NCBI RefSeq assembly: GCF_007994225.1
Contig: NZ_VLLL01000007.1
Location: 365,686 to 429,685 of the forward strand
Source: Stackebrandtia albiflava
GTDB taxonomy: Bacteria > Actinomycetota > Actinomycetes > Mycobacteriales > Micromonosporaceae
Direction of reading: 5' to 3'
Length of the DNA: 64,000 bases
Of this stretch, positions 43,188 through 64,000 are shown in pieces. How positions within the stretch are numbered: the stretch's first letter is position 1; every line of letters starts with the position of its first letter. Under the pieces are notes generated by a model, which saw only the letters and a program-made list of their open reading frames with translations, had not been told where the DNA came from and searched no databases. The translations under genes and the position numbers were made by a program.

Positions 43188-43239
43188 TCACTGGAATCCG
43201 GGGTACGGCCGTGACGCCCAGGGTGGTAGTGGTCGTTTT

Positions 43240-45090: not shown

Positions 45091-45277
45091 CCCCACCGGA
45101 ACCACCTCCTTGCTCAGCGCGACGACGCGCGAGTCCCCTTGCGATCTGTGAGGTACCGACTACATGTTGCCATAGATTCTCGCGCGACACAAGTTGTGGG
45201 AGTGGCTAAATCGCGGCGAGTCGCCATCTTCTAAACTGAGTGGCGTTTCGATTACCGAAGCCGTTGGGGGCGAAGTC

Positions 45278-46944: not shown

Positions 46945-46958
46945 GGTCGCCAGATCGG

Positions 46959-47555
46959 TCACCGGGTGGACGACCGGTGCAGGGTGGGCCGGTAGACGAG
47001 TTCCTGCGTGCGGCCGTCGAGTGTCCGGGTCTCCAGCAGTTCCAGGTCGAAGTCGTCGGCGCCGCGGAAGATCGGATCGCTCCCCGACCGACCGGTGATC
47101 ACCGGGAAGATCGTCACCTGAACGCGGTCGACCAGGCCGGCCGCCAGCAGCGCACGATTCATCGACAGGCTGCCGTGTGAGCGCAACGGCACCTCCGACT
47201 CCTCCTTGAGCCGGGCGACCACCTCGACGGCGTCCCCTCTCACGATGGTCGCGTCCGGCCATCCGAGCGTATCGTCGAGGCTGTTCGAGATCACGGTGGT
47301 CGGCAGGTTCCTGAACCGCTGCACCCAGGGGTCCCGGGTCTCCGGGAGCCCCCCGTCCGGCCCCAGCATCTCCGCGAACTGCCGGAACGAGGTGGCACCG
47401 AGCACCAGCCGCTGATCCTCCCTGTACTGGTCGAGGCGGTGCTCCAACAGCTCCGGCCCCTGCTTGCCCCAGTAGCCGCCCCAGTCGCCCTTCTCGTTGT
47501 ACGAACCGAACCCGTCGACGCTGGTGAAGATGTCGAAGGTGTACGTCGCGGTCAT
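46959..47555 (-). CDS. dihydrofolate reductase family protein (RibD C-terminal domain/YwjB-like)
   Basis: FTSVDGF...GKQGPEL...VLGATSF...TIFPVITGRSG. The RBS AGGAGGGGAA lies before the ATG at 47555. Confidence 0.7.
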   Translation of the reverse strand: MTATYTFDIFTSVDGFGSYNEKGDWGGYWGKQGPELLEHRLDQYREDQRLVLGATSFRQFAEMLGPDGGLPETRDPWVQRFRNLPTTVISNSLDDTLGWPDATIVRGDAVEVVARLKEESEVPLRSHGSLSMNRALLAAGLVDRVQVTIFPVITGRSGSDPIFRGADDFDLELLETRTLDGRTQELVYRPTLHRSSTR

Positions 47556-47587
47556 GGTGTTCCCCTCCTGAGCCGAACGCGGCGATG

Positions 47588-48319
47588 TCACGCTCCATCG
47601 TGCACCACTCCACCCCCGCGCGGGGTGGACGACGCCGACACGGGGCAGGGCTCTCCGCGCGACCGAACGCCCCCACCCGCCGCGGGTAACTCCGAATGCC
47701 GGTGGCGCGGCACGGGTGCGTCCGAGTGCCGCCATCCCCTCGTGGTCATGCGGGTGCCGATGAAACCGCGCAGGCCGGCGGCGGCCCGCCTACCGGCGGA
47801 GTGCGGGGAGGACTCCGCGACGGCGGCGATCGCCGCCAGGACCGGGTCGGGCTGTCTACCGGCCAGGCTCGCGGCGCCGACCTGCCTGGCCCGCCGCGAC
47901 GTGTGCACGATGAGCACCCGGATCCGCTGCCCGTCGTTTCCGGTGGCCGACAGCACGTGTTGGTCGACCGGTACCAGGGCGGCGCCACGCAGGTATTCGA
48001 ATTCGAGGTCCGGCGTGTGCAACGGCAGTGACGCGATCCGGCCGTCGGCGAATCCGATGGAGATCCGGTCGGCGGTCAACAACTCCCAGCGTCGTCGGGG
48101 CCCACCGTCCCGCCGTGCGGCCTTGACCTCCTTGACGCCGTACCGGAGTCCCGCCGCGATCGCGAGCAGCAGCACCACCGCCGACGCCACGGCGAGCCAG
48201 ACGGGCAGACCGTTCTCCTCCACCAGGATGAACGGGACGACCGGCATCGGGCATCCGAGTACGAGGACGAGGATGCCGACGAGGTATCCCCGCACCCTGG
48301 ACGTGTGGTGGGCTCCCAT
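47588..48319 (-). CDS. membrane protein with two transmembrane helices plus a bacterial-PH-like domain (copy 2 of a tandem pair)
   Basis: A transmembrane hairpin, then RRWELLTADRISIGFADGRIASLPLH. Paralogous to 48330-49050. Confidence 0.5.
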   Translation of the reverse strand: MGAHHTSRVRGYLVGILVLVLGCPMPVVPFILVEENGLPVWLAVASAVVLLLAIAAGLRYGVKEVKAARRDGGPRRRWELLTADRISIGFADGRIASLPLHTPDLEFEYLRGAALVPVDQHVLSATGNDGQRIRVLIVHTSRRARQVGAASLAGRQPDPVLAAIAAVAESSPHSAGRRAAAGLRGFIGTRMTTRGWRHSDAPVPRHRHSELPAAGGGVRSRGEPCPVSASSTPRGGGVVHDGA

Positions 48320-48329
48320 CACTTCGGCG

Positions 48330-49050
48330 AGGTAGGTCAGGTACACGCCGTCATCCTGACGCGTAACGGCACGGAACCCGCACGAGTGCCGGGAGAGATC
48401 ACGTGCCGTCGACGGGAACCGGGTCAGGCGTGTTCCCAGCCGTTCGTGGTCACCCGGGTACCGATGAACCCGCGGAGGGCGGTGGCGGTCTGTCGCCCGG
48501 TGGGATGGGGGGGAACCGGCGGCCACGTTCGCGATCGCCGCCAGGACGTGGTCGGGTTGCCGAACCGGCGTCGTCATGTATCCCGACAGGGGGTTCCACC
48601 GTGGTGTGTTCACCGTCAGGACCTTCGCCGGCGTCCCCTCGTGATCGGTCGCGGCCAGTACGTACTGGTCGACCGGCATCCGGCCACCCGACAGATACTC
48701 ACACTGAGGTCGGCCGCGTGCAACGGCAACGACCGCACGGTGCCGTCGGCGAAGCCGATCTCGATGCGGTCGGCGTGCAGCCGTTCCCACTGCCGCGTCG
48801 GCTCGACGGCGCGCTTGGCGGCGTTCATCTTCTGGACGCCGTGCCAGGTCGCCGCCACGATCACCGACAGCAGCACCAGATTCACCAGTATGACCGCCCA
48901 GACCGGACGGACCTCCTCGGAGATCATGTAGAGCGGTATCGCGGGACCGAAGAGGAACCCGAGCATGAGAGGCATGAGAACGTATGACATCGCCTTCTCC
49001 CGGCGTTGGTGGTTCTCGTCGATCAGCGGACCCAGGTGAATGAGATACAT
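48330..49050 (-). pseudogene. Copy 1 of the tandem membrane-protein pair; it is frameshifted relative to copy 2
   Basis: The N-terminus (48616-49050) is in one frame and the homologous C-terminus continues in the frame of ORF 47588-49093. A 1-bp deletion lies near 48700 when aligned to copy 2. Confidence 0.45.
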
Positions 49051-49159
49051 CCCGTGATGGTCGTCTCACGACGCACGGAAACCGCACGGGCACGCGCGGG
49101 TTGGCCGTGCGACGGGCGAACCTCCGCCGTCCGGATCCACAGGCCGTCCATCATTCACA

Positions 49160-49187
49160 TTGACGGCCATGGATGGCTCGATATCAT
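49160..49187 (+). promoter_or_regulatory. Candidate sigma70-type promoter for the peptide operon
   Basis: TTGACG-N16-TATCAT, 50 bp upstream of the ATG at 49237. Confidence 0.35.
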
Positions 49188-49236
49188 GTGCGACAGCGGC
49201 GCGCCTGCGCCGCATCGTCACGCAAGGGGTATGTGA

Positions 49237-49437
49237 ATGAAGCGCATCAACCGGATCGCGGACAAAGCACTGTCCAAACTGGTCGGCAAGTCGACCGCCA
49301 AGGCGTCCTGCGTCCCCTACTGGGAGTACTACTGCTCCTTCAACCCGGCCGTCTGCACCGGCGGCCACGCCAGATACCGCCGGTACATCACGGTCGACTG
49401 CACCGCCTGCTGCACCCAACACGTCGGCTGCTGCTGA
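49237..49437 (+). CDS. Cys-rich small peptide A (66 aa): conserved leader plus 8-Cys core; candidate RiPP/disulfide-rich precursor
   Basis: MKRINRIADKALSKLVGKSTAKA | SCVPYWEYYCSFNPAVCTGGHARYRRYITVDCTACCTQHVGCC. Strong GC3 bias. The RBS AAGGGG lies upstream. Confidence 0.7.
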   Translation: MKRINRIADKALSKLVGKSTAKASCVPYWEYYCSFNPAVCTGGHARYRRYITVDCTACCTQHVGCC

Positions 49438-49564
49438 CACGACGCACGACCCCGCACGCCGCCCTACCGGCGTGCCCCCACGACCCCCGGCAACGTCGCA
49501 CGCCGCCCTACCGGCGTGCTTCATCGCGACCCGCCCCCTGCAACGCATCACCCCGGGAGACACC

Positions 49565-49774
49565 ATGACACTCGTCAACCGCATCCACCGCGTCGCCGAC
49601 AAGGCCCTGTCGAAACTGGTCGGCGAATCGACCGCCAAGGCCGCGTGCGCACCGTACTGGCACTACTACTGCTCGTACAACCCGGCGATCTGCTCGGGCG
49701 GACACGTCCGGTACCGCAAGTACATCATGGGCACCTGCGACACCTGCTGCGTCGAATACGTCGGCTGCTGCTGA
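49565..49774 (+). CDS. Cys-rich small peptide B (69 aa), paralog of A
   Basis: MTLVNRIHRVADKALSKLVGESTAKA | ACAPYWHYYCSYNPAICSGGHVRYRKYIMGTCDTCCVEYVGCC. GGGAGA lies before the ATG. Confidence 0.7.
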   Translation: MTLVNRIHRVADKALSKLVGESTAKAACAPYWHYYCSYNPAICSGGHVRYRKYIMGTCDTCCVEYVGCC

Positions 49775-49910
49775 CCCGCGCCCACGGAGAGGGCCGCGAC
49801 CGCCGACCGTCACCGGGCGCGGACCCACAGCTCAACCCCATTGACGCGCACTTATTCCTCGATATGATCCCCCGGTGGTGCCGCCCTGCACCACTTCCGT
49901 CTATTCGAGG

Positions 49911-50117
49911 ATGGTCACTTTGAGTCTCATCAACCGCATCGCCGACAAGACGCTGTCCAAGCTGGTGGGAGAGGCCACGGCCAAGGCCGCCTGCTCGCCG
50001 TACTGGCAGACCTACTGCGTGCGCTCCGGCGTGTGCGCCAGCGGACACGCCAAGTACCGCCGGTACGTCAACGTCCACTGCGACACCTGCTGCCGCGAGT
50101 ACGTCGGCTGCTGCTGA
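49911..50117 (+). CDS. Cys-rich small peptide C (about 66-68 aa), paralog of A and B
   Basis: (MVT)LSLINRIADKTLSKLVGEATAKA | ACSPYWQTYCVRSGVCASGHAKYRRYVNVHCDTCCREYVGCC. The start is the ATG at 49911 or the TTG at 49920. Confidence 0.65.
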   Translation: MVTLSLINRIADKTLSKLVGEATAKAACSPYWQTYCVRSGVCASGHAKYRRYVNVHCDTCCREYVGCC

Positions 50118-50219: not shown

Positions 50220-51125
50220 ATGTCGCATCGATGTGCCACTATCGTCGCCATGGCTCCCCCTCCGGCCGCGACGGCCGACGCAGACCTGGTGTGGCGCGAG
50301 GCCACCGACAAGTACCAGATAGCCCTCGACGGCGCGACCCTCGTATGCCGTAACGACAAGGGCAAACGCCTCAAATCGGTTCCCAAGGCGGTCCGCGACG
50401 GCGCCGTGGCGGAGGAACTGCTCGCGGTCCGCGACTTCCTGGAACGACACGAACGGCACTGTCACGCCACCGTCGAATCCTGGATGCTGGGCGCCCTCCC
50501 CATACCGGTGCCGCTGCTCCTGGAGATCTGGCCGGACCCCGCGTGGCGTCAGGCACTGGCCGACCTGGCGGTCGCGGAGGAACCGGGCGGCGAGCCCGGC
50601 CTGCTGCGGCAGATCGACGACGACGGCAGGATCGGTGTCGTCAACCTCGACGCCGAGACCGAGTGGATCGACGCCGAGCGCCTCTACATCCCGCATCCGG
50701 TGCTGCTTCCCGACCTGGACGACGTACGTGACTTCGCCGTGGAACTGGGTGTCTCTCAGCGGGTCCCGCAACTGGTCCGGGAGGTGTTCACCAAACCCGA
50801 CACCGTCGAGGGCAACAGCCTCGGACGGTACGGCGGCGGGGTCTTCGACGAGCTCCGCCAGGCCAAGGGCCGGGCGATCAAGTTCGGCTTCGGTGTCCGA
50901 GGCGGCTACGCCACCACCCACGCCACCGACGGCGGCACCGAACTCCAGGCGCGCTACTGGCTGGGCGACGACGGTCCCGACTACGAGGCGTACACCGGGG
51001 ACCTGCTGTGGGTGGACGACGACGAGCGTCCCGTCCCGTTGACCGACGTCGGACCGATCGCCTGGTCCGAGGGAGTGCGCATGGCCGAACTGATCTACGC
51101 CGGAAGGAAGACCGATGACGAGTGA
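50220..51125 (+). CDS. hypothetical protein (301 aa), coupled to the downstream giant gene
   Basis: Good GC3 bias. Its stop overlaps the next ATG (ATGACGAGTGA). No motif recognised. Confidence 0.55.
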   Translation: MSHRCATIVAMAPPPAATADADLVWREATDKYQIALDGATLVCRNDKGKRLKSVPKAVRDGAVAEELLAVRDFLERHERHCHATVESWMLGALPIPVPLLLEIWPDPAWRQALADLAVAEEPGGEPGLLRQIDDDGRIGVVNLDAETEWIDAERLYIPHPVLLPDLDDVRDFAVELGVSQRVPQLVREVFTKPDTVEGNSLGRYGGGVFDELRQAKGRAIKFGFGVRGGYATTHATDGGTELQARYWLGDDGPDYEAYTGDLLWVDDDERPVPLTDVGPIAWSEGVRMAELIYAGRKTDDE

Positions 51126-54100
51126 CGCCCTGCTGCGCGCCGGGTTGGCACCGTTGGACGCCCCCGACGGCATGCCCCTCCGCGCCCGCACCTACTCGCA
51201 CCCGGCGCTCGGCACGCGCCCGGTCGTCCGCCTCGCCGGCGACCAGGTCGCCGAGGCCGAGGACCGCACCCTGGAGTTCCTCGGCTTCACCGAACCGCGT
51301 ATCTCGGAACCGTTGGGACGCATCGTCGCCGGAGGCTCCGGATACCCCGCCTGGGCGTTGATCAACGATCCCGACAACGGCAGGTTGGCCCTGTCGGTCG
51401 TCCCCGACATGGAACGCGCCGCACGCAAGGCCGTGGCCTCGCCGCTGGACGCGCAGGCCGGATTCACGCAGATCGCGGCGAAACTGCCACAGACGCACCT
51501 TCCCTCCTTCTGGGAGCAGGCGGGCCGGGCGTTCCTCGACGCCGACCGCGCCCACTTCGCGGGCCAGATGTTCGGACGCGCCCGCGAGGTCGAACGCGTC
51601 CACGCGCTGCCAGTCGACGAGAACCTCCGCCGCGCGGTGTTCCTGGAGTTCGCGCTCGCCGGCGCCCTGTCGGTCAAGGCGCTCACCGAATACCTGAACG
51701 AGCTGACCAGCCGGTACGACCCCGACACCGCCGCCGACTCCTTCGAGTCGCTGACCCTGGGCAGGATCCGGGGCGGGCTGTCGCCCTGGGCCGACCTGCC
51801 CAAGCAGTGGCGGCGGCTCACCAAGTCCGCCGGGCGGGACTCGACCGCGGAGGAACGGCGACTGCTCGCGGAACTGCTCGACGCCGCCCCGATGCGGTCG
51901 GCGCCGGTGAAGTTCTGGCAACAGTGCCGGGCGTCGCTGGTGGCGCTGGGGCGTTCCGAGCCACGACACGCGCGCAGCCTGCTGTTCCTGTTCCCGCAGA
52001 CCAACGGACGCCAGGACGCCACCGCCGGGTTCTTCGAGTGGTGGCTGGACCTGCTCGACGACGCGGGCGCGTTGCGACTGCTCGCGGAGTCCGACGCCCC
52101 GGTGGAGTGGATGAACCGGGCGGTCGCGGAGCTGAAGGTCTCCGACCGCAGGCAGAGCGCCCCGCAGCGGCTGATCGACCTCGTGAAGGAGTTGGCGCCC
52201 CGGTTGACGGGCCTCGACCTGGGCTCCGAGCAGCGTCGGTACAACCCGCGGATCAACATGGACCTGCTCAGCGTGTGCCTGACGTCGGGCGTCGCGATCA
52301 AGGAACCCGACGCGAAGGCCCACCTGGGGCCGGGGGACTGGTACGCGTCGGCCAACACCGAGATCGACCCGATAGCGGCCGACCCGAGGTTCCGGCCCAT
52401 GCTGTACAGGGCGCTCGACCGGTTGGCCGGTCACGCCGAGGCGATACGCCACCCGAAGCTGCGGCCCGTCATCGAGGACTGGATCACCTCGCGGGCGGAA
52501 CGCACCGTGGACTGCGGCCTACTCGACCTCGACGCCGTGTTGCCGCTGTTCACGCACGTCGAACTCGAGTCCTTCCCCAAGGCGGACCGCGCGTTGATCG
52601 ACATCGACGTCGCCGAGACCCTGGCGCGTTCGCTGCGGGCGGGCCTGCCGGGCGAGCTGGGTTGGGCGGCCTTCGACGAGGCGGTGTCCGAACTGGACGG
52701 TCGGATCCGGATGACCGCGAGCTGGCCGATCCTGACCGTCTACAGTACCGAGAAGGCGATCGCGATCGGTCCGCAGGGCCGGATCGCCGAACACGAACTG
52801 CGATTCGCGGGCAAGCCGAGCCGGATCATCGTGACGTACTCCGACGACGCCTTCATGGTCGTGTGGAACGTCAGTTACAGCACCAACCACTTCTACTGGA
52901 GTCACGACCCCGCCCGGGTGGAGGAACTGAAGACCTCCTGGATCGGGGACCGCAGCGAGGACCAGGGCTACCACCTGCTGAACCCGCAGGGCAGGCTGCT
53001 CAGTCGCGGCGAGGTACTGCACCGCGGACAGGACACGCTGGAGGCGCAACGCTGGAAGGGCCTCACCGACGGCGAGACGTTCTGGTCGGCGGCGAACCAC
53101 TCGTGGGACGTCCACGAGATCGACCCCGCCACCGGTGAACTCGGACGGGTGTCGTTCCCGTCGTTCTTCGACGACGCGGAACGTCCGGCGGGTCACAAAT
53201 GGAGCATCACCTACAGCTCCCTCGTGGCGCTACCGGGCGGGATACCCGGGTCACCCTTGGGCAGTCGTGGGGACCTGATGGGGTTCCGTGTGTCCACGGG
53301 AGACGACGGGCACGCCATCACCGGCGTCGACGGCCGGCACGCCACGCTGCCGACCGGGCACTCGATACCGTGGGCGCTCATCGACATCCCCGGGGTCGAC
53401 TCACCCAGGATGCTCACCGGGACCGGCAGGAACCGGCTGGTGGACCCCCAGGGGCGGGCGCACTCGACGATCGGGATCGGCGGCAGGGAGGCGCCACCGA
53501 AGGCGTTCTGGCACTTCATGACGCCACGCGACCCGGAGTCGTCGAAGATCCTGCGGGACATCGACCGCGAGACGGCGTGGCGGCTCATCAAAGCCGCACA
53601 CGAGGACATCGAGACACGACGCGACGAGTCGGAGGACCGGAAACCGGCCCGGCTGGAGACCGAACTGTCCGAGGTGGGCATCACGCACGAGCGGATCCGC
53701 GACCACGTCGCCGCCGTGGTGCGCGAGGCCACCAGGATGGCGCGGAACCGCGAACTGATGCTGAAGCCCGAGAACGCACCCACGAAGTGGACACCGTCCA
53801 TCGACCGTCAGGGACTGTCCACCGGACTCTCCGGGCTCCGTCAGGGTGACAACGTGTACAACGACAACACCGCCGAGGTGTTCGAGGCACAGATCGGATT
53901 CCTGGCCGGCACCATCGGTTCCGACGACGCCGCGAAACACGCCTGGCAGAGATACGGCGACTGGACCGACCTGTTGGGCAGGTTCGCGGCCCTGGCGGTG
54001 CGCGCGGTCAGCCCCGCGTTCGACGAGTCGGCGCGGAACGCCCTGCGCCGGATGCTCACACTGGCGGCGGAGAGTCCCATCACCTCGGGCGACGTGAGGA

Positions 54101-55611
54101 TCGGCGCGATGACGTCAGGGGAGCACGTCGGCGTGCGGAACGCCGACGGTGCGCTGATCACGACGACGACGATCCGCGTCGACGGTGTCACCCACTACGT
54201 CTTCCTCGAGGTCGGCCGACCGGAACGGCCCGCCGTGTCCAACGAGTTGCGCGCCGTCACGACCGGTTGGGGTGCCTCCGCCAGGATCAAGGAGTTCCTG
54301 GCGGCCGTCGAGCGGCAACCGGTCGTGGAGGTCGATCCCGCGGCGGTGGCACTGCTGTCGGAACGGACCGGCATGAGCTCCGGGGCGGCGACGCTGCTCC
54401 TGACGGGGCTTCCCCGCGTCACCGTTTACGAGACGCACTTCCTGGACGCGGACACCCGGAAACGGCTCGGCCTGACGTCGGCGGCGGCGCAGTCCGGACG
54501 CGCCACCGTACGGAGACTGCGACAGGACGACGCCCTGGACTTCTACGAGGAGGTGTTGGGCGACGACCCGACGATCCTGTGGGACCAGCCCCGGTTCGCG
54601 GCGGGACTCGCGGAGGCGTGGGTGAAGCGGCACGGTCGTTCCGTCCCACTCTCCGAGGAGACCCGGGCCCAGGCCGACAAGATCGGGCTGTCCCACGGCG
54701 CCGACTCCGTACTGCGGTTCTTCACCGACGGCGACCGCGCGTTCTGTGACAAGAGCGGACTGCTCTCCCCGAGGGAACTGAACGACGTCCAACAGGCGGC
54801 GTGCTGGGCGTACGCGTCACTCCCGGAGGGCGACCCCGTGCGCGACGGGATCCCGCGCGCCCTGGCGGCCGCCCACGCGGACGTCGCCGACGAGTCGCAA
54901 CTGTTCGGGATCGGATACCTCGACGTGCCGGACGACCTGTTGAGCGAGGACGAGCGGCACATCGCGCAGTTGGGCCGCACCGCCTACGACGGTGGACTCG
55001 TCGTCGCCGAACAGCGGGGACGACGCCAGTCGAGGACGTACTTCCGGCCCGCCCGGTTGACCGACGACTCCGCCGGGACGGCGTTGCGCGCCATCGACTA
55101 CACCGGCGTCGTCCGGCTGGTCGACTGGTTCCGCAGCCCGGACGCGGCGGACATCGCGGCCCGGATCGGGAAGATCCCGGCGGGCCGGTACGAAGCCGAC
55201 CCGCGTGCCTCGGTACCGCACCTGGTGGCGGAGGCACGCGACGACCTCGGCCTGTCCGAGGAGGCCGCGACCCTCTACCTGCAACTGCTGGCCCTGCCCG
55301 AACCCACCGACCGCAACGTCCGCACCTGGAACGGGTGGACCCCGGCACGGCACAAGAAGGCGATCGCCGAGTTGCTGGAGAAGGAACTGGTCGTCGCCGC
55401 CAAACGGTCCCGTGCCGGGCGTGGCGTGTTCCTCCCCGGCGGCTGGCAGGACCTCAAGGCGCCCGCCAAGCCGCGTGAGACCTGGAAGGAGCCGCTCTAC
55501 CCGGCGCCGCCGACCAGCTACTACGCCTCGTCGCCGCTGGTGAACCGGCCGTTGACGGAACTGTTCACCCAGGCGTGGCGGCGTCACACCTCGGGAGAGG
55601 GACCCCGGTGA
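51115..55611 (+). CDS. giant hypothetical protein (1498 aa), paralog 1
   Basis: Uninterrupted ORF, collinear similarity to 55608-60167 along the full length. No catalytic motif recognised. Confidence 0.7.
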   Translation: MTSDALLRAGLAPLDAPDGMPLRARTYSHPALGTRPVVRLAGDQVAEAEDRTLEFLGFTEPRISEPLGRIVAGGSGYPAWALINDPDNGRLALSVVPDMERAARKAVASPLDAQAGFTQIAAKLPQTHLPSFWEQAGRAFLDADRAHFAGQMFGRAREVERVHALPVDENLRRAVFLEFALAGALSVKALTEYLNELTSRYDPDTAADSFESLTLGRIRGGLSPWADLPKQWRRLTKSAGRDSTAEERRLLAELLDAAPMRSAPVKFWQQCRASLVALGRSEPRHARSLLFLFPQTNGRQDATAGFFEWWLDLLDDAGALRLLAESDAPVEWMNRAVAELKVSDRRQSAPQRLIDLVKELAPRLTGLDLGSEQRRYNPRINMDLLSVCLTSGVAIKEPDAKAHLGPGDWYASANTEIDPIAADPRFRPMLYRALDRLAGHAEAIRHPKLRPVIEDWITSRAERTVDCGLLDLDAVLPLFTHVELESFPKADRALIDIDVAETLARSLRAGLPGELGWAAFDEAVSELDGRIRMTASWPILTVYSTEKAIAIGPQGRIAEHELRFAGKPSRIIVTYSDDAFMVVWNVSYSTNHFYWSHDPARVEELKTSWIGDRSEDQGYHLLNPQGRLLSRGEVLHRGQDTLEAQRWKGLTDGETFWSAANHSWDVHEIDPATGELGRVSFPSFFDDAERPAGHKWSITYSSLVALPGGIPGSPLGSRGDLMGFRVSTGDDGHAITGVDGRHATLPTGHSIPWALIDIPGVDSPRMLTGTGRNRLVDPQGRAHSTIGIGGREAPPKAFWHFMTPRDPESSKILRDIDRETAWRLIKAAHEDIETRRDESEDRKPARLETELSEVGITHERIRDHVAAVVREATRMARNRELMLKPENAPTKWTPSIDRQGLSTGLSGLRQGDNVYNDNTAEVFEAQIGFLAGTIGSDDAAKHAWQRYGDWTDLLGRFAALAVRAVSPAFDESARNALRRMLTLAAESPITSGDVRIGAMTSGEHVGVRNADGALITTTTIRVDGVTHYVFLEVGRPERPAVSNELRAVTTGWGASARIKEFLAAVERQPVVEVDPAAVALLSERTGMSSGAATLLLTGLPRVTVYETHFLDADTRKRLGLTSAAAQSGRATVRRLRQDDALDFYEEVLGDDPTILWDQPRFAAGLAEAWVKRHGRSVPLSEETRAQADKIGLSHGADSVLRFFTDGDRAFCDKSGLLSPRELNDVQQAACWAYASLPEGDPVRDGIPRALAAAHADVADESQLFGIGYLDVPDDLLSEDERHIAQLGRTAYDGGLVVAEQRGRRQSRTYFRPARLTDDSAGTALRAIDYTGVVRLVDWFRSPDAADIAARIGKIPAGRYEADPRASVPHLVAEARDDLGLSEEAATLYLQLLALPEPTDRNVRTWNGWTPARHKKAIAELLEKELVVAAKRSRAGRGVFLPGGWQDLKAPAKPRETWKEPLYPAPPTSYYASSPLVNRPLTELFTQAWRRHTSGEGPR

Positions 55612-58600
55612 GTGCGGCCCGGACGGACGCCCCGGACACCGGCGACGCGCTGCTGCGCGCCGGGATGGCACCGGTGGACTCCGAGGAGGGGGAGCCGGTC
55701 CGCGCCCGCGGCTACCGGCACCCCGCACTGGGTGGCCGCCCAGTCGTCCGGCTGGTCGCGGAACGGTTGGGTGAGGCCGAGGACCGCACCCTCGGCTTCC
55801 TGGGCTTCACCGCGCCGACCGTCTCGCCGCCGGTGGCGCGCGGCGTCACCGGCGGCGTCGGATACCCCGCGTGGGCGCTGATCAACGACCCCGCCAACGG
55901 GAGACTCGCGCTGTCGGTCATCCCCGATATGGAGTTCGCGGCCCGCAAGGCCGTCGCCTCACCGAGCACCGCCCACCTGACACTGCTGGACGTCGCCGAC
56001 CGGCTTCCCGCCGGGCACCTCCCCGCATTCTGGGAGGAGGCGGGGAGGATCTTCCTGCGCGCCGACCGCTCCCACTACACGGTGCAGTACTTCGGGAAGG
56101 CCAGGGAGGCGGAGCGGCGGCACGCGCTACCGGTAGACGAGGCGACCCTGCAGGCCGTGTACCTGGAGTTCGCGCTGGCGGGCGCGCTGTCGGTGAAGGC
56201 GTTGACCGAGTACCTCGACGAGCTGTCGCGGCGTTACGCGCCGGACGAGGCGCTGGCGAAGTTCGAGTCGCTGGCGTTCGGCCGGATCAGGGCGGGGCTG
56301 GCGCCGTGGTCGACGATGCACGCGCAGTGGCGGCGACTCGTCAAGGCGACCGGACGCGACGCGGACGCCGAGGCACGGCGGCTGCTCACCGAACTGTTCG
56401 ACGCCCCGGCGTTGCGGTACGCGCCGGTGAAGTTCTGGGAGGTGTTCCGGCCCGCGCTGGTGGCGCTCGGTCGTTCCGACGAGCGGCACGCCCGGACGAT
56501 CCTGCACCTGTTCCCGAGGTACTCCGACAACGACCGGGACGCGCACACGTTCACCACGTGGTGGCTGGAACTGTTGGACGAGATCGGGGCGTTCCGGCTG
56601 TTGGACGATCCGGGGCACGCCCGCTCCTGGCTCCACCGGATGATCGGTCAGCTCAAGGTGTCGGACCGCCGGGACAGCGCACCGCCCCGGCTGCTGGCGC
56701 TCGTGGAGGAGCTGGCTCCCCGGCTCACCGGAGTGGACCTGTCCGCCGGAACCGACTGGTACGTCAACCGCGTCAACATCGACCTGTTGAGCACCTTCCT
56801 GAGGCTGGGTGTTCCGGTCGCCGACCCGGTGAAGAACGCCAGGCTGGACGTGACCGACTGGATCGCGACCGCCCGGACCGATCTGGCCCCGGTGGTGACC
56901 GACCCGCGTTTCCGGGAACTGTTGTACACCGAACTGGACAGGCTGGCGGTCGGTCCCGAGACGTTGCGGCACCGCCGGTTGCGTCCGGTGGTGGGCGGCT
57001 GGCTGGTCGATCGCGCCACCCGCGCCGAGGGCGGCGGGCTGCTCGATCTGGAAGCCTCCATGAAGTTGTTCGAGCACATCTCGTTGGACGAGCAACCGGA
57101 GGCGCGGCGGGCGCTGGCCGACATGGATCCGGTGGAACGGCTGCGCCGGTCGCTGCGCGCGGGAACACCCGCCGAGCTCGGCTGGCCGGCGTTCGACGAA
57201 GCCGTGTCCGAACTGGGCGGCCGGGTGGAGATGATCCCGAGCTGGCCGATCCTGACCGTCTACAACGGAGTGAAGGCGATCGCCGTCGGTCCGGAGGGCA
57301 GGGTGGCCGAGCACGCGCTGCAGACGTCGGCCGGACCGGACCGGACCGTCGTCGCCTACGCCGACGGCGCGTTCATCGTCGCGTGGAAGGCCGGCCGGGA
57401 GTACCACCACTACTGGAGCCACGACCCGTCCCGGGTCGCGCCGCTGGCGAACTCCTGGCTCTCCACGCACATCCAGGGCATGGGGTTCACCCCGCTCACC
57501 TCGGACGGCACCCGCCTCACCGAGGGCACCGCGCTGCGCCGGGGCGACGACCGGATCAACGACAACGACGACGTCCTCAGCGACGGGGAACGCTTCTGGA
57601 TCGGGCAGTGGGAGTCCGGAAGCGTCCGCTTCCGGGAGGTGGACCCGCAGACCGGCAAGGTCGGTGGTCACTCGACTCCCGCGTTCTTCGACGACGCGGC
57701 CCTACCCGACGGGCACTGGTGGCTGGTCCACGTGAACTCGCTGGCGGCGCTCCCCGAGGCCGTCGCCGCGGAATCGCCACTGGGACACGACGGCGGGCTG
57801 GTGGGGTTCCGGGCGTCCGCGAACGGGAAGACCACCGTGATCACCGGCGTCGACGGCCGCACCGCGACACTCCCGTCCGACCGGGACTCGCCGTGGGGAC
57901 TGCTCGACATCCCCGGCCACGACACCCCCAGGATCATGACCGGCACCGGTTTCGTGAACCTGATCGGCCCCGACGGTGCCCTGCACTGGGCGGTGGCCAC
58001 CGGCACCGCGACCACCCCGCCGGCCGCCTTCTGGCACTTCACGTCCCCGCGCGACCCCGAGGGGTCGAAGGCACTACGGGACGTCGACACGCCGACGGTG
58101 GAACGACTCGTCACCGCCCTCACCGAGGACAGGGCGGCCGTGGACTCCGGCGCGGAACCGAAGGGCACCACCGCCCGGACGGACGCCGTACTCACCGACA
58201 TCGGCATCCGGCATCCGGTGCTGCGGGAGGCCGTCACCGACATGACCCGGCGCGCGGTGGGACTGCGGGACCAACGCGAACGGCTGCTGTCGGCCGGGCG
58301 GTCGACGGTGGGCCGGCCCCCGGCGATCGACCGAACCGGTCTCGCCGAGGGACTGTCGGGCCTGGTCACCTCCGGCCGGCCCGCCCAGTACGACCGGACG
58401 GCCGACCAGCTCACGGCACAACTGGACTTCCTCGCCGAGCGGATCGACGGCCCCACCACGCTGGCCGCGCTGCGTTACCACTCCACCGACTGGACGCCGC
58501 TGCTCGGCAACCTGGCCGCCCTGGCGGTCCGCGCGGTGAGCGTCGCCTACGACGACACGGTCCGCGACACGCTGCGACGGCTGCTGGGACTACTCGCCGA

Positions 58601-60167
58601 CGGTCCGGCGACCACGGGGGTCCTGCGGCGCGGAACGATGGTCACCGGCGGCGCCGTCGCGCACCGCGACCCGGGTGGCGCCCTGGTCACCGTCGACTCC
58701 GTGTACCGGGACGGCCAGCGGCATCACCGGTTCATCGAACTGGGTGACCCGCGACGCCCCGCCACCGCCACCGCCGTCCACACCGTCCCGGTCGGGTGGG
58801 GTTCACCCGACCGGATCGCGGAGTTCCTCGCGGCGGCGGAGCGTCGGCCCGTGGTGCCGCCGGATCCGAAGGCGGTCGCGATCCTCTCGGAGCGGACCGG
58901 TCTCAACGGGTCCGCCGCGCTCCTGCTGCTGACGGGACTGCCCGGCATCGAGGTGTACGAGTCGGACTTCCTGGGCCCGGAGGGGCGGGAACGGTTGGGC
59001 CTGAAGACGACCACCGCCAAGGCGGGCCGGATGGCCTTCGACGGGATGACCCGCGGCGACCGGCTCGCACTGTACGAGGCCGCGCTCGGTGAGGACGCGA
59101 CGGTCCTGTGGGACCCGCCCCGGTTCGCCGCACGGCTCGCGGACGCCTGGGTCGCCCGGTACGGCCGCCGCATTCCACTGTCCGAAGAGGTCATCCTGGC
59201 CGCCGACCGGCTGGAGCTCCACAACGGCACCGAGTCGGTGTTGAGGTACCTGACGGAAGTGGGGCGGGAGCCCGACGCCGAGGCGCCGGCGGCCGCCCCT
59301 CCGTTGGGCGACGCGGACGGCCTGTTGACCGTCATGGAACTCCTGGACCTGCGACGGGTGGTCAGCTGGGCGTACACCGCGCTGCCGGAGGGCGATCCGG
59401 TCCGGGACGGCGTTCCGCGCGTACGGGAGGCGGTCCTCGCCTCGCTCGCCGACGATCGTCCACTATGGGATATCGGCGGTCACTCGGCGGCACGGTTCCC
59501 CCGGGAACTGCTGGGCGACGAACCGTACTGGGACCAGGCCCTCGGCCGGAAGGTCCACGACGGCGGCCTGTTCGTCGCCGTCGAGGAACAGGACTGGTTC
59601 CGCGTGTACTTCCGGCCCGCCCGTCTCACCGACGACGCGGCCGGCGCCACCCTGCGGGCCCTGGACGACATGCACTACACGACCCTCATCGACTGGTGGC
59701 GGGGACCGGACCCGGTGGCGCTCGCCGCCCGGATAGGCTCCCTCCCGCCCGGTCGGTACGAATGCGACCCACGGGCGTCGGTGCCGGAACTGGTGGACGA
59801 GGTGCGATCCACTCTGGACCTCTCCGAGGACGCCGCGACCCTGTACCTGCAACTGCTCACCCTGCTCGACCCCACCGACCGGCACGTCCGCACCTGGAAC
59901 GACTGGACGCCCGCCCGGCACAAGAAGGCGGTCGCCGCACTGCTGGAAGCGGAACTCGTCGTCGCCGCCAAACGGTCCCGTGCCGGGCGCGACGTCTTCC
60001 TACCCGGCGGCTGGGGCACCGCGAAGGCACCCGAGGTGCCGTCCGAGACATGGAAGGATCCGATGTACCCGGTGTTCGACTCGATACCACGTTCGGTGAC
60101 CCGGCCGCTGCCGGAACTGTTCGCGCACGCATGGCGGCGTCACACCTCGGGGGAGGGACCACGATGA
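55608..60167 (+). CDS. giant hypothetical protein (about 1520 aa), paralog 2
   Basis: The GTG overlaps the paralog-1 stop as GTGA. N-terminus SAARTDAPDTGDALLRAGMAPVD aligns to MTSDALLRAGLAPLD; the two are about 50-60% identical by eye. Confidence 0.7.
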   Translation: MSAARTDAPDTGDALLRAGMAPVDSEEGEPVRARGYRHPALGGRPVVRLVAERLGEAEDRTLGFLGFTAPTVSPPVARGVTGGVGYPAWALINDPANGRLALSVIPDMEFAARKAVASPSTAHLTLLDVADRLPAGHLPAFWEEAGRIFLRADRSHYTVQYFGKAREAERRHALPVDEATLQAVYLEFALAGALSVKALTEYLDELSRRYAPDEALAKFESLAFGRIRAGLAPWSTMHAQWRRLVKATGRDADAEARRLLTELFDAPALRYAPVKFWEVFRPALVALGRSDERHARTILHLFPRYSDNDRDAHTFTTWWLELLDEIGAFRLLDDPGHARSWLHRMIGQLKVSDRRDSAPPRLLALVEELAPRLTGVDLSAGTDWYVNRVNIDLLSTFLRLGVPVADPVKNARLDVTDWIATARTDLAPVVTDPRFRELLYTELDRLAVGPETLRHRRLRPVVGGWLVDRATRAEGGGLLDLEASMKLFEHISLDEQPEARRALADMDPVERLRRSLRAGTPAELGWPAFDEAVSELGGRVEMIPSWPILTVYNGVKAIAVGPEGRVAEHALQTSAGPDRTVVAYADGAFIVAWKAGREYHHYWSHDPSRVAPLANSWLSTHIQGMGFTPLTSDGTRLTEGTALRRGDDRINDNDDVLSDGERFWIGQWESGSVRFREVDPQTGKVGGHSTPAFFDDAALPDGHWWLVHVNSLAALPEAVAAESPLGHDGGLVGFRASANGKTTVITGVDGRTATLPSDRDSPWGLLDIPGHDTPRIMTGTGFVNLIGPDGALHWAVATGTATTPPAAFWHFTSPRDPEGSKALRDVDTPTVERLVTALTEDRAAVDSGAEPKGTTARTDAVLTDIGIRHPVLREAVTDMTRRAVGLRDQRERLLSAGRSTVGRPPAIDRTGLAEGLSGLVTSGRPAQYDRTADQLTAQLDFLAERIDGPTTLAALRYHSTDWTPLLGNLAALAVRAVSVAYDDTVRDTLRRLLGLLADGPATTGVLRRGTMVTGGAVAHRDPGGALVTVDSVYRDGQRHHRFIELGDPRRPATATAVHTVPVGWGSPDRIAEFLAAAERRPVVPPDPKAVAILSERTGLNGSAALLLLTGLPGIEVYESDFLGPEGRERLGLKTTTAKAGRMAFDGMTRGDRLALYEAALGEDATVLWDPPRFAARLADAWVARYGRRIPLSEEVILAADRLELHNGTESVLRYLTEVGREPDAEAPAAAPPLGDADGLLTVMELLDLRRVVSWAYTALPEGDPVRDGVPRVREAVLASLADDRPLWDIGGHSAARFPRELLGDEPYWDQALGRKVHDGGLFVAVEEQDWFRVYFRPARLTDDAAGATLRALDDMHYTTLIDWWRGPDPVALAARIGSLPPGRYECDPRASVPELVDEVRSTLDLSEDAATLYLQLLTLLDPTDRHVRTWNDWTPARHKKAVAALLEAELVVAAKRSRAGRDVFLPGGWGTAKAPEVPSETWKDPMYPVFDSIPRSVTRPLPELFAHAWRRHTSGEGPR

Positions 60168-61234
60168 ACCGTCAGGTCGAACCCGCGGAGGTGAGGTACG
60201 CCGCCGAACTGGCGCTGCTCGCCGAGGAGAGCGGCCCGCGTCCACCCGGATGGCGCCTGACCCCCTCGGCCGTCGTCACGTTCATCATGGGCGACGGAGG
60301 CCGGATCAGCGGCAAGTTCCTCGGCGACCGCGCCCTGGTGGAACGCGCCGTCATCACACTGGCGGGCCGCCGCGGCCTGCTGCTGGTGGGGGAACCGGGT
60401 ACCGCGAAGTCGATGCTGTCGGAGCTGTTGACGGCCGCGATCAGCGGCGACAGCTCCCGCACCGTGCAGGGCAGCGCGGGCACCCACGAGGAGCAGTTGC
60501 GGTACGGCTGGAACTACCAGCTCCTGTTGGCGAAGGGACCGTCGGCGGAGGCACTGGTGCCCTCGCCGATCCTGTCGGCCATGCGCGCCGGGGCGGTCGC
60601 CCGGATCGAGGAGGTGACCCGCTGCCTCCCCGAGGTGCAGGACGCCCTGGTGTCGGTGCTGTCGGAACGCCACATGTCGGTCCCCGAGCTGGGTGAGACC
60701 GAGTACGCCGTCGACGGCTTCAACGTGATCGCCACCGCCAACCTGCGCGACCGGGGCGTCAACGAGATGAGCGCCGCCCTGAAGCGCCGGTTCAACTTCG
60801 AGGTCATCGAACCCATCGGGTCGCTGGAGGCCGAGACCGCCCTGGTGAAGCGGGAGGCGATGCGCACCATCACGGGCGGCAACGCACCGGCCGAAGTGGA
60901 CGACGCGGTGGTCGAGGCGCTGGTGACGGTGTTCCGCGACCTGCGGCAGGGCCGCACGGTCGAGGGCTGGCCGGTGGAACGGACCACCGCCGTCCTCAGC
61001 ACCGCCGAGGCGGTCGCGGTCGCCGGTTCGCTGGGCCTCCAGTCGGCGTACTTCTCCGTCGGCGACCCGGTGTCGCTACTGCCGGGGCACCTGCTCGGCG
61101 TCGCCAGGAAGGACGATCCCGCCGACCAGGCCAAACTCGTCGGGTACTGGGATTCCACGATCCGGCGTCGGGCCGAGGGCGGCGCCCGGTTGTGGAAACG
61201 GCTCTACGAGCTCCGGCACGTCGTCGGCGAGTGA
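60164..61234 (+). CDS. MoxR-like AAA+ ATPase (CbbQ/NirQ/NorQ/GvpN-type)
   Basis: Walker A GEPGTAKS, Walker B/sensor ARIEEV...VIATANL, and ALKRRF. The ATG overlaps the upstream stop as ATGA. Confidence 0.85.
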   Translation: MNRQVEPAEVRYAAELALLAEESGPRPPGWRLTPSAVVTFIMGDGGRISGKFLGDRALVERAVITLAGRRGLLLVGEPGTAKSMLSELLTAAISGDSSRTVQGSAGTHEEQLRYGWNYQLLLAKGPSAEALVPSPILSAMRAGAVARIEEVTRCLPEVQDALVSVLSERHMSVPELGETEYAVDGFNVIATANLRDRGVNEMSAALKRRFNFEVIEPIGSLEAETALVKREAMRTITGGNAPAEVDDAVVEALVTVFRDLRQGRTVEGWPVERTTAVLSTAEAVAVAGSLGLQSAYFSVGDPVSLLPGHLLGVARKDDPADQAKLVGYWDSTIRRRAEGGARLWKRLYELRHVVGE

Positions 61235-64000
61235 CCGTGACCGATCCCTCCCAAGCCGTGGAACGGCTCGTCACCAGCAGTGCGCCCTTCCTGATCGGGG
61301 TCCGGCACCACTCGGCGGCGCTGGCGGTGGCGGTGCCGGAGCTGCTGAACGCCGCCGCCCCCGACGCCGTGCTCGTCGAGCTGCCGGTGGAGCTGCAGGA
61401 GTGGCTTCCGTGGCTCGCCCACCCGGAGACGACGACGCCGGTCGCGCTGGCGATCGCCCGGCCGGACGGCGCCCGGCTCGGCTTCTACCCGTTCGCGGAC
61501 TTCTCCCCCGAGTTGGCCGCGTTGCGGTGGGCCGCCGCCAACGGCGTCCCCGCCCACGCGATCGACGTCACCGTCGACCGGAACGACGACTCGCCGCGGC
61601 GCGGTGTCGGTGACCTGCTCCGCAGGCACGCCGGGACCGACACCTTGGAGGCCGCCTGGGACCGGCTCGTCGAGACCCCCTCGTACGGCGCCGATCCCGA
61701 ACGGGTGCGCCGCGCCGCGCTCGCCTACGGCTGGGCGGTCCGCGCCGACGCCGACCCGGTGAGCGACGCCGACCTGGTCCGCGAGACGCACATGCGCCAC
61801 CGGTTGCGTGAGGTCGGCGCGGCGCGTCCCGCCGTGGTGGTCGGCGCGTTCCACGCCGCCGCCTTCGTCGAACCCGCGCCCGAGATGCCGTTGCCGGCGG
61901 CACGCGAGGACGTGGTGACATCCCTGATCCCGTACAACTTCGCGCTGCTGGACTCCCGGTCGGGCTACCCGGCGGGAGTGCGGGACCCCGGTTGGCATCA
62001 GGAGGTCGTGCTGTCGAAGGGGCGGCCGGAGGCGTTGGACGACGCGGTGGCGCTCCTGGCGGCCCGGGTGTGCGCGCGGCTGCGGGCCGACGGCCACGTC
62101 GCGGGCACCCCGGACGCCGTCGCCGTCTACACGATGGCCCGGGAGCTGGCGAGCCTGCGCGGCCTGCCCGCGCCGGGCCGGGCGGAACTGGTGGAGGGAC
62201 TGCAGTCCGCGCTGGCGCAGGGGGAACCCCTGGGCCGGGCGCGCGCGGTCGCCAAGGCCGCCGAACAGGTCCTGGTCGGGGAGCGGCGCGGCCGGATCGC
62301 GGGGGAGGCGCCCCGTTCCGGGCTGGTCGCGCACGTGGCGGACCTGCGCAAGGAGTTGCGGCTTCCGGTGCGCGACAGGGCATTCCGGCTCGACCCGTTC
62401 CGGTCGCCGCTCGACCGCCGCCGGCACGTGGCGATGTTCCGGATGCGTGCCGCCGGCATCGACTACGCCCAACCCGGCGAGATGACCGGCGTCGCCGGCG
62501 CGGAGTCCGTCACCAAGACCTGGGAGGCACACTGGACACCCGCCAGTGACGCCACGGTGGAACTGGCGGGCGTCTACGGCCCCGACCTCGCCACCGCCGC
62601 CGAGGGACGGCTCACCTGGCGGCTCCGCCGGGGCACCTCCGTCACCGAGATACTCGACGAGGCCGCCGAGGCGGGCCTACCGGAGTTGACGGCACGACTG
62701 ATCGCGGAGATCGGTGACACGTTCCCCGCCACGGCGGGCCTGGTCGAGCTGCTGGACGCGTACCGGCAGGTCCACCGCATCCGGTCCGGGGGCGTGCCGG
62801 GCATCCCGACGCCGCCGGCGAACGCCGACCGGACCGCCACGCGCCTCATGACCACGGCCGTGTCCGGTGTGGACGGCTACGCCGGCGCGGACTCCCCCGT
62901 CGAACTCGCCGCGCTGCGGGACCTGATCGGACTCGCCGACGACACGCACCGGGAATCACTGGTGTGGCAACTGGAACGGATGACCGACACCGCCGGACCC
63001 GCCGCGCAGGGCGCGATCGCCGCCGCACTGGTGCGGCTGTCCGCCCGGGACTCCGACTGGCTCACCGGCCGGATCACCGGCTGGGTGGACGCCGGCGGCC
63101 CCACCCTGGGCGACCGGTTGCGCGGTGTGCTCGTGATGGCGGGGCCGATGCTGGAGGCGTCCTCGGAGTCGCTGACCGGGCTGACCGAACGGATCGGCGC
63201 CTGGTCGCCGGAACGTTTCCTCGACCGGCTTCCCGCGCTCCGCAAGGGATTCGACACGCTGTCCACGGCCGCGCGCGACCGGCTGCTCGCGACCCTGGAA
63301 CTCGACGCGATACCGGACACGACGGATGACCCGGCGGACCTCGCCCGCTGGGAGGCCGCCGACCGCGCCGGGTACGCCGCCGTGGCCGCCATGCTCCCGG
63401 CCCCGGCCGAGACCCCCGACGCACCGGCCGCACCGGCCACCGCCGGTGCCATGTCACCCGAGACGGCGCACCGCTGGCGTCTCATCCTCGGACGGCAGGC
63501 GGAGAAGCTGCCCGTCGAGCAGCGCAGGCTCGCCCGGGCGCTCGACGAACTGTACGGCCGCGGACACGGCGAGGGCTCCGCCGGAGGCGGGCTCGAGGCA
63601 CCGTATCCGTCGGCGAGGGAGTGGGCCGAGGACCTGACCGAACTGTTCGGCGAACGGGTGCGCGAGGAGGTGCTCGGCGCCGCCGCCGCGCGCGGCCGGA
63701 ACGACGTGGTGTCTGAACTGGACCCGGAACGGGTCGAGCCCTCGGTGGACCTGCTGCAGAACGTGTTGTCGCTGGCGGGCGCGCTTCCGGAGTCGAGGCT
63801 CGCCGTGCTGCGGCCCATCGTCGCGCGGATCGTCGACCAGCTCGTCAAGGCGCTGGCGACCCGGATGCGCCCGGCCCTGACCGGGTTGACGGTGCCGCGA
63901 CCGACGTTCCGTCCCACCGGCCGGCTCGACCTGTCCGGAACGCTGCGCCGCAATCTTCACACCGCCCGGATGCGGGACGACGTACTGGAACTGGCCGTGG
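61231..64000 (+). CDS. large protein with a C-terminal CoxE-like VWA module; 3'-truncated by the window end
   Basis: Frame 1 is open from the GTG at 61231 to the window end. This ORF is absent from the ORF track, I think because it has no stop. The C-terminal region VLRPIVARIVDQLVKALATRMRPALTGLTVPRPTFRPTGRLDLSGTLRRNLHTARMRDDVLELAV is the hallmark lead-in of CoxE-type VWA proteins, which partner with MoxR ATPases. Confidence 0.7.
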   Translation, partial: MTVTDPSQAVERLVTSSAPFLIGVRHHSAALAVAVPELLNAAAPDAVLVELPVELQEWLPWLAHPETTTPVALAIARPDGARLGFYPFADFSPELAALRWAAANGVPAHAIDVTVDRNDDSPRRGVGDLLRRHAGTDTLEAAWDRLVETPSYGADPERVRRAALAYGWAVRADADPVSDADLVRETHMRHRLREVGAARPAVVVGAFHAAAFVEPAPEMPLPAAREDVVTSLIPYNFALLDSRSGYPAGVRDPGWHQEVVLSKGRPEALDDAVALLAARVCARLRADGHVAGTPDAVAVYTMARELASLRGLPAPGRAELVEGLQSALAQGEPLGRARAVAKAAEQVLVGERRGRIAGEAPRSGLVAHVADLRKELRLPVRDRAFRLDPFRSPLDRRRHVAMFRMRAAGIDYAQPGEMTGVAGAESVTKTWEAHWTPASDATVELAGVYGPDLATAAEGRLTWRLRRGTSVTEILDEAAEAGLPELTARLIAEIGDTFPATAGLVELLDAYRQVHRIRSGGVPGIPTPPANADRTATRLMTTAVSGVDGYAGADSPVELAALRDLIGLADDTHRESLVWQLERMTDTAGPAAQGAIAAALVRLSARDSDWLTGRITGWVDAGGPTLGDRLRGVLVMAGPMLEASSESLTGLTERIGAWSPERFLDRLPALRKGFDTLSTAARDRLLATLELDAIPDTTDDPADLARWEAADRAGYAAVAAMLPAPAETPDAPAAPATAGAMSPETAHRWRLILGRQAEKLPVEQRRLARALDELYGRGHGEGSAGGGLEAPYPSAREWAEDLTELFGERVREEVLGAAAARGRNDVVSELDPERVEPSVDLLQNVLSLAGALPESRLAVLRPIVARIVDQLVKALATRMRPALTGLTVPRPTFRPTGRLDLSGTLRRNLHTARMRDDVLELAV

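Follow-up and report, generated by a model that had tools for sequence, protein, structure and literature searches.

The 64-kb stretch of the Stackebrandtia albiflava genome analyzed here (the window; GC content ~70%) carries a tandem pair of genes for proteins of about 1,500 amino acids, giants A and B. They lie in an operon that also encodes a small DUF4132 protein, a MoxR-like AAA_5 ATPase, a DUF5682 protein fused to a von Willebrand factor A (vWA) domain, and a SWIM-like protein. By analogy with other MoxR-vWA systems, we propose, with a probability of about one half, that A and B may be functional alternative or hetero-oligomerizing sensor/adaptor subunits of one MoxR-vWA motor. The evidence comes from the operon and the coupling of its genes, the domain architecture in high-confidence models, the distribution of the giant family, the recurrent multiplication of the giant gene, and the symmetric constraint on the two copies.

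The giant pair and its operon

A sequence-only reading of this DNA had described the two giants as full-length, collinear, intact, diverged paralogs, and the alignment bears this description out. In an end-to-end BLASTP comparison, 807 of 1519 positions were identical (53%), with 66% positives, 2% gaps and E = 0. Neither translation contains an internal stop, no disabling mutation was seen in A or B, and both open reading frames (ORFs) have a coding-type codon composition, with a GC content at third codon positions (GC3) of 0.90. The motifs quoted in that reading (DRTLEFLGFTEP/DRTLGFLGFTAP, GYPAWALINDP and WTPARHKKA..AAKRSRAGR) were all found in A/B. The frame of B is open from 55575, and the GTG at 55608 yields 1519 residues, which is the length of the deposited LX16_4243. 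This GTG lies on the TGA of A (55609–55611), confirming the GTGA overlap that had been noted earlier. The deposited proteins LX16_4242 and LX16_4243, which are identical to A and B, are annotated as hypothetical.

The order of the operon is small DUF4132 protein, giant A, giant B, AAA_5 ATPase, DUF5682+vWA fusion and SWIM-like protein, a context absent from the sequence-only reading. Stop and start codons overlap at the DUF4132/A junction (by 11 nt), at A/B (GTGA), at B/AAA_5 (ATGA) and at AAA_5/DUF5682 (GTGA), and no promoter-like or terminator-like sites were seen within the operon. The operon is translationally coupled. The earlier statement that no ATPase signature was found holds for the giants themselves, but it misses the AAA_5 ATPase gene that overlaps the stop codon of B.

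The AAA_5 ATPase has the P-loop GEPGTAKS and a Walker B motif that reads ...IEE; homologs, among them the one from the Agrobacterium vitis cluster discussed below, conserve its P-loop and sensor motifs. The bpMoxR model PF20030 scored 20.3 bits on this protein (E = 3e-4), below its cut-off of 27 bits. The next protein runs past the end of the window; in full (contig L001) it has 1100 residues, and its vWA_CoxE domain (PF05762) lies beyond the window. The metal-ion-dependent adhesion site (MIDAS) motif of this domain is intact (DVSGS…GGGT…SDFEEG) and aligns with the stand-alone vWA protein of Agrobacterium. Judged by the conserved P-loop and sensor motifs and by the intact MIDAS, the motor looks competent. 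The SWIM-like protein matches PF04434 only weakly (E = 0.11), and its C.CLL.P.C.H motif is conserved in four loci at the same operon position; pairwise BLASTP against the Agrobacterium SWIM protein gave no significant match. A search of PADLOC-DB 2.0 with all five operon proteins returned 0 matches at E ≤ 0.01, and no enzyme client (CO dehydrogenase, Rubisco or NO reductase) is present in or near the operon. A phage origin was considered and rejected, as tblastn against 50,697 phage records gave no match.

Table 1. Genes of the operon and predicted domains of giant A; nucleotide positions are those of the window
Feature	Position	Strand	Description
Giant paralog A	51115..55611	+	ATG start, 1498 aa; LX16_4242, P0001
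Giant paralog B	55608..60167	+	GTG start, 1519 aa; LX16_4243, P0002
A, residues 1-75	51115..51339	+	small N-terminal beta-beta-alpha-beta domain (model); family-invariant R25, Y27, R35, D50, G57
A, residues 79-530	51349..52704	+	predicted all-helical TPR-like solenoid (model)
A, residues 532-790	52708..53484	+	predicted all-beta WD40-like propeller (model)
A, after residue 790			predicted helical region; small beta unit at ~994-1048; helical 1055-1257; small beta unit at ~1264-1310 (model)
A, C-terminus			predicted helical region ending in a winged helix at ~1365-1455 (model)
Small DUF4132 protein	50220..51125	+	PF13569, E = 2.6e-20; 301 aa from ATG at 50220, annotated as 291 aa from 50250
AAA_5 (MoxR-like) ATPase	60164..61234	+	356 aa; PF07728, E = 5.4e-38; ATG in the ATGA overlap with the TGA of B
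DUF5682 protein with C-terminal vWA_CoxE	61231..64000, running past the window end	+	PF18934, E = 6.5e-141
SWIM-like protein	beyond the window, after DUF5682+vWA (L001)		564 aa; last gene of the operon

Domain architecture, distribution and duplication of the giants

Searches of Pfam, NCBIfam and PADLOC with giants A and B gave no match, and a sequence-profile search of the PDB gave a single match at E = 0.14, to an RNA polymerase, which was taken as chance. To describe the architecture of the family we used AlphaFold2 models of A built on 46-sequence alignments. The model of residues 1–835 has a predicted local distance difference test score (pLDDT) of 89.6 and a predicted template modeling score (pTM) of 0.80; that of residues 801–1498 has values of 90.4 and 0.86. 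These models now supply the family with a domain map that comprises a solenoid, a propeller and a winged helix (Table 1). In Foldseek searches, the predicted beta domain matched WD40-type propellers (WDR5, Atg18 and Vps18) with E-values of 4e-4 to 5e-3, a probability of ~1 and a template modeling score of ~0.3, and the top match overall was VPS15, which combines a helical solenoid with WD40. No match to a known repetitive structural family was found at the sequence level; the TPR-like and WD40-like character of the giants appears only in the predicted structure, with weak scores. Structure searches of the models revealed no enzyme-like or catalytic fold and returned scaffold-type folds only, so the earlier remark that the giants lack a catalytic signature holds. 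According to the models, the giants are scaffold proteins without an enzyme-like fold.

Conservation within the family peaks in the first ~300 and the last ~150 residues. Invariant arginines of the latter region lie in the putative wing, and the model of this part shows a winged-helix fold with a basic recognition helix and wing. This fold predicts nucleic-acid binding, and the C-terminal winged helix of the giant may thus contact DNA or another nucleic acid.

Homologs of A form at least 647 clusters at 90% identity; nearly all are 1,500–1,700 residues long and none has a Pfam domain. Their database names are “hypothetical” or “DNA-binding protein”, the latter being automatic RefSeq/UniRef annotation. 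When the first 535 residues served as query in an exhaustive phmmer search, 606 representatives at 50% identity were obtained, 363 of them at E ≤ 1e-30. The best 150 of these matches begin at or near the N-terminus and are mostly proteins of 1,500–1,700 residues; the shorter ones are possibly fragments. For a survey of gene neighborhoods, one genome per species was taken; at least 574 loci were returned and 79 were examined, with gene order read by tblastn with five or six S. albiflava proteins. The canonical order at these loci is small DUF4132 protein, giant, AAA_5, DUF5682-vWA and SWIM-like protein, and it recurs in Actinomycetota, Myxococcales, Acidobacteriota and Acidimicrobiales. A small DUF4132 gene lies directly upstream of the giant in 76 of the 79 species loci, and AAA_5 adjoins the giant in 63 of the 71 loci with sufficient flank. 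One metagenome protein of 2031 residues (P0246) appears to be a natural fusion, with DUF4132 (residues 38–222) and a full giant (from about residue 355) in a single ORF, a Rosetta-stone type hint that the small DUF4132 protein may contact the giant. A direct contact between the two is what this fusion predicts.

The hosts of the family belong mainly to the Actinomycetota, with further members in Myxococcales, Acidobacteriota, Acidimicrobiales and one Selenomonadaceae metagenome-assembled genome (MAG). Actinomycetes and Myxococcales include many multicellular or mycelial forms. The distribution of the family is patchy, the genes flanking the operon vary between genomes, and the operon is also found on Streptomyces linear megaplasmids and near transposase genes. 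In a Streptomyces subfamily (loci L020, L028, L033, L036, L040 and L079), the match to the giant ends at about residue 1170–1220, leaving the C-terminal winged-helix part unmatched, and no AAA_5/DUF5682 module lies beside the gene. One plasmid match (H26) covers only giant residues 948–1497. Because the former lack a matched C-terminus and the latter is C-terminal only, the giant seems to consist of separable N- and C-terminal modules.

The pair is a real tandem duplication whose copies are translationally coupled, and A and B are each other's closest relatives. In neighbor-joining trees, A and B (54% identity) are sisters, and the two S. soli copies (41–43%) and the Nonomuraea protein (41–42%) fall outside; the A/B duplication is therefore lineage-specific. 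At four-fold degenerate sites, A and B agree at a fraction of 0.53, where composition alone would give 0.41. With synonymous sites this near saturation, the duplication is old. Tajima relative-rate counts gave 140 lineage-specific changes for A and 131 for B (p = 0.58). In 18 members from single-giant loci, 132 alignment columns reach at least 90% conservation, and of these 125 are retained in A and 123 in B (~94%). Both copies are under constraint and evolve symmetrically. The divergence of paralogs tracks the variable regions of the family itself, with Spearman coefficients of 0.78–0.84 and a value of 0.84 for A and B. It is lowest for A and B in the N-terminal 300 and the C-terminal 150 residues, and highest at residues 601–650 (in the propeller; 31% identity), 851–950 and 1001–1050.

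One giant per locus is the norm, as seen in 75 of the 79 species loci, and at least six lineages have independently raised the number of giants to two to four. Luedemannella helvata (L030, 10001–19482) has two tandem giants ahead of AAA_5 that are 69% identical overall. Actinocorallia libanotica has three giants and Actinocorallia sp. B10E7 four, with ~60% identity among the copies in this genus. A Myxococcales MAG carries two pairs of small DUF4132 gene and giant in divergent orientation (40% identical), a metagenome scaffold carries two giants (56% identical), and Nocardiopsis halotolerans has two pairs on two contigs (51% identical). In S. soli there are two loci, one with a full operon and one with an unlinked pair. 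The ATPase, vWA and SWIM genes are unduplicated in every multi-giant locus where they are visible. A tandem duplication as such is an ordinary evolutionary event; what deserves attention is which gene was duplicated. Because the giant is duplicated and the motor genes are not, this pattern suggests that the giant is the variable, specificity-bearing and target-recognizing part of the system.

The classical WGR-DUF4132 protein, which is described below, also occurs in pairs, at the adjacent tags RLZZ618_464/465 and as two copies in the Pigmentiphaga aceris genome. The two Luedemannella giants are 80–98% identical over their first ~300 residues (98% over residues 151–300) and ~60% identical elsewhere. 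From the sequences, this pattern suggests either gene conversion or a very strong shared constraint on the N-terminal part, which we propose below as a docking module.

Comparison with known systems and the role of the pair

Among the closest known systems is the Escherichia coli yehL-yehM-yehP-yehQ/molR (yehH-yehI) cluster, which we take to encode AAA_5, DUF5682, vWA_CoxE, a SWIM zinc finger and WGR+DUF4132. The cluster annotated on the Agrobacterium vitis plasmid pAvCG78a (AAA, DUF5682, a WGR+DUF4132 protein of 1330 residues, vWA and SWIM) presumably belongs to the same type. The S. albiflava operon shares with it an AAA_5 ATPase that is ~50% identical to the Agrobacterium one, both having the unusual P-loop GEPGTAKS and a Walker B motif ending in …EE. 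Also shared are DUF5682 in a gene that adjoins or overlaps the AAA_5 gene and a vWA_CoxE domain with an intact MIDAS. The last gene of the S. albiflava operon encodes a putative counterpart of the SWIM protein, with a CxC…CxH pattern but only E = 0.11 with the Pfam SWIM model. The DUF4132 domain is common to both as well, but here it resides on a protein of 291–301 residues and not on a large one. Where the yehLMPQ/molR type has a WGR+DUF4132 protein of 1,200–1,400 residues, S. albiflava has a DUF4132 protein of ~290 residues and a giant of ~1,500 residues that carries no WGR domain; DUF5682 and vWA are fused and the gene order is changed. Judged by these sequence features, the S. albiflava operon is a variant of the yehLMPQ/molR-type cluster with a distinct architecture. 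The yehLMPQ/molR-type cluster is widespread and found even in E. coli, and the giant-bearing form represents a second architecture that is common in actinomycetes; this variant is not described in the literature searched.

Two further links to the yehLMPQ/molR cluster were tried and rejected. The idea that the giant derives from a MolR-like WGR-DUF4132 protein, diverged and separated from its DUF4132 domain, was rejected at the sequence level, as hhalign gave a probability of 0.3% with one sequence and 0.2% in the profile–profile mode. An SOS link of the kind reported for molR was also considered: molR has been described within the LexA regulon, and in Deinococcus, DUF4132 and WGR genes are strongly upregulated on depletion of the repressor DdrO (PMC8533742). 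No actinobacterial LexA box (TCGAAC-N4-GTTCGA, with up to two mismatches) was found from 42.6 to 61.8 kb of the window.

The second framework for comparison is provided by the MoxR-vWA systems. In the ternary conflict systems described by Kaur, Burroughs, Iyer and Aravind (2020, eLife; PMC7159879), the proposed role of a large third component is to sense and to couple to the switch. According to the same paper, the vWA MIDAS of MoxR-vWA pairs captures a partner peptide while the ATPase remodels, and the characterized pairs are mostly maturation or remodeling chaperones for specific client complexes. In its beta-propeller class, the third component contains TPR and propeller regions, conventional effectors are absent, and the MoxR P-loop takes the form GXXXTAKS. 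Experiments in Actinobacteria support a MoxR-vWA pathway whose sensor protein bears a propeller (bioRxiv 10.64898/2026.09.08.750141).

The S. albiflava operon resembles the beta-propeller class in several ways. It combines a MoxR-type ATPase, a vWA protein and a large third component; a TPR-like solenoid and a propeller-like domain are predicted for the giant by the models; the ATPase carries GEPGTAKS as its P-loop; there is no effector; and the taxa are mostly actinomycetes and Myxococcales. There are also clear differences. In that class the vWA protein carries a ~4-bladed propeller, whereas here vWA is fused to DUF5682 and the sequence annotation records no propeller. The third component of the class has a variable N-terminus and a membrane segment, whereas the giant is most conserved at its N-terminus, and no membrane segment was seen on reading its sequence by eye, no predictor having been run. 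Furthermore, the bpMoxR match stays below threshold (20.3 against 27 bits), and SWIM, WGR, DUF4132 and YehL are not mentioned in PMC7159879. Membership of the operon in the beta-propeller class is not established. With the CoxD-CoxE, CbbQ-CbbO, NorQ-NorD, RavA-ViaA and Midasin systems the operon shares an AAA_5 ATPase and a MIDAS-bearing, vWA_CoxE-type domain; giants, DUF4132 and SWIM-like proteins stand here in the place of an enzyme client.

In the machine that we propose, a MoxR(AAA_5)-vWA system of five parts, the small DUF4132 protein, the giant, AAA_5, DUF5682+vWA and the SWIM-like protein would work together, with the giant as the variable third component. The conserved N-terminal ~300 residues would dock the giant to the small DUF4132 protein, to the motor, or to both, the conserved C-terminal winged helix would contact nucleic acid, and the fast-evolving middle, with the propeller and the small beta modules, would recognize a ligand or partner. 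As in other MoxR-vWA pairs, a peptide of this complex would be captured by the vWA MIDAS, and ATP would drive the AAA_5 ring to remodel the complex or to switch it. On this analogy, the giants would form a complex with the motor and be coupled to its ATPase activity. The duplication would then have produced two alternative recognition subunits on one motor, widening the range of recognition; given a homo-oligomeric ancestor, A and B may in addition assemble together into a heteromer. A more specific version, in which the giant senses nucleic acids or invaders as the third component of a MoxR-vWA surveillance or conflict class not described before, is speculative and in our estimate improbable. 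If true, this class would parallel the ternary systems of Kaur et al. and the yeh/molR cluster, and the repeated multiplication of the giant (two to four copies, unlinked pairs) would represent a diversification of recognition, with several sensors acting on one ATP-driven switch.

The sequence-only reading had offered a hetero-oligomer or distinct specificities as the reason why both copies were kept. Computation cannot choose between these two, and the comparative data lean toward alternative subunits, because a single giant is normal, copy number reaches three to four, pairs without a motor exist, and the motor genes are unduplicated. The foremost rival is an obligate hetero-oligomer, in which a homo-oligomeric ancestor became an A–B heteromer and both copies are needed for one function. 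The GTGA coupling, which favors equal amounts of A and B, would suit such a partnership, as would the single DUF4132 partner gene for two giants and the symmetric rates with conserved sites kept in both copies. The N-terminal 300 residues of the Luedemannella giants, so much more alike than the rest, look as if they fit one shared partner. A fixed 1:1 assembly is, however, at odds with the single giant at 75 of 79 loci, and copy numbers of three and four and the unlinked extra pairs in S. soli and N. halotolerans do not fit it either. We therefore regard an obligate heteromer as unlikely, although it is the most plausible of the rivals.

Next in plausibility, and likewise doubtful, is the possibility that the giants and the small DUF4132 protein are clients of the motor and not its sensors. 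By analogy, they would form a structural or nucleoid-associated assembly that is matured or disassembled by MoxR-vWA, and the duplication would have given two client isoforms. Known pairs mostly serve client complexes (PMC7159879), as CbbQ-CbbO does on Rubisco and RavA-ViaA on its targets, the giants are built from scaffold modules without an enzymatic fold, and the operon has no effector gene. Repeated lineage-specific multiplication and fast divergence restricted to the middle modules are, however, expected of recognition components more than of housekeeping clients, and the patchy distribution, the varying flanks, the Streptomyces megaplasmids and the transposase neighbors also speak against a client role. 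Neutral redundancy, that is, a chance tandem duplicate with no distinct role that is kept for dosage or is heading to loss, is the least plausible explanation and a quite improbable one: no functional difference between A and B is apparent in their sequences, and their divergence mirrors the variability of the family, but the duplication is old (54% protein identity; four-fold sites 0.53 versus 0.41), both 4.5-kb ORFs are intact, ~94% of conserved columns are kept at equal rates, and independent multiplication occurred in at least five other lineages.

Several results weigh against the proposal that A and B are sensor/adaptor subunits of one motor, or limit what can be said for it. Nothing separates alternative subunits from an obligate A–B heteromer. 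The DUF4132–giant pair stands without an adjacent motor in 8 of 71 loci, so the pair might act alone. The Walker B motif of the AAA_5 ATPase carries EE where DE is usual, and no effector domain is present in the operon. The pairwise alignment that had been suggested as a check confirms the paralogy, but the ratio of nonsynonymous to synonymous substitution rates (dN/dS) of 0.59 (NG86) or 0.65 (LWL85) is uninformative beyond being below 1, as synonymous sites are near saturation at a GC3 of 0.9. In the literature on DUF5682, DUF4132, yehLMPQ and WGR+SWIM+MoxR+vWA, no functional study of either variant was found.

Other features of the window

Three tandem paralogous genes for Cys-rich peptides lie on the + strand just ahead of the operon, at 49237..49437, 49565..49774 and 49920..50117. 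The peptides have 65–69 residues and are 59–68% identical, with a leader-like N-terminus (INRIADKxLSKLVGxxTAKA) and a core with 7–8 Cys that ends in VGCC. Sigma-70-like promoter matches (10 of 12 positions) are present at 49160 and 49841, before the first and the third gene. No match to the peptides was found in Pfam or NCBIfam. They could be precursors of ribosomally synthesized and post-translationally modified peptides, or secreted peptides. A role as part of the giant system was rejected, as tblastn found them absent from the other 84 giant-bearing loci.

The region from ~42000 to 50000, just upstream of the operon, has a GC content down to 0.65–0.68 and short or fragmentary ORFs. It includes a regulator with HTH_31 and DUF5753 (45194..46144) followed by a DUF397 gene, a RibD_C protein (46959..47735) and a fragment of a major facilitator superfamily (MFS) gene (48616..49050). 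The region has the appearance of degraded or recently acquired DNA.

Further upstream, a 691-residue protein without a Pfam match (30963..33038, +) is followed by a protein of 1653 residues (33121..38082, +) that contains DUF3686 (“ATPase involved in DNA repair”, E = 1e-218), DUF7902 and a C-terminal AAA_5/AAA domain. The segment 30963–38082 is a second giant-protein system, unrelated to A and B. On the opposite strand, positions 9954–14348 encode a hybrid histidine kinase of 1463 residues, in which an array of some eight HAMP domains precedes GAF, HisKA, HATPase_c and a receiver domain. High-GC3 ORFs recur on the strand opposite to this gene (11428–13266) and are read as a shadow of the histidine kinase.

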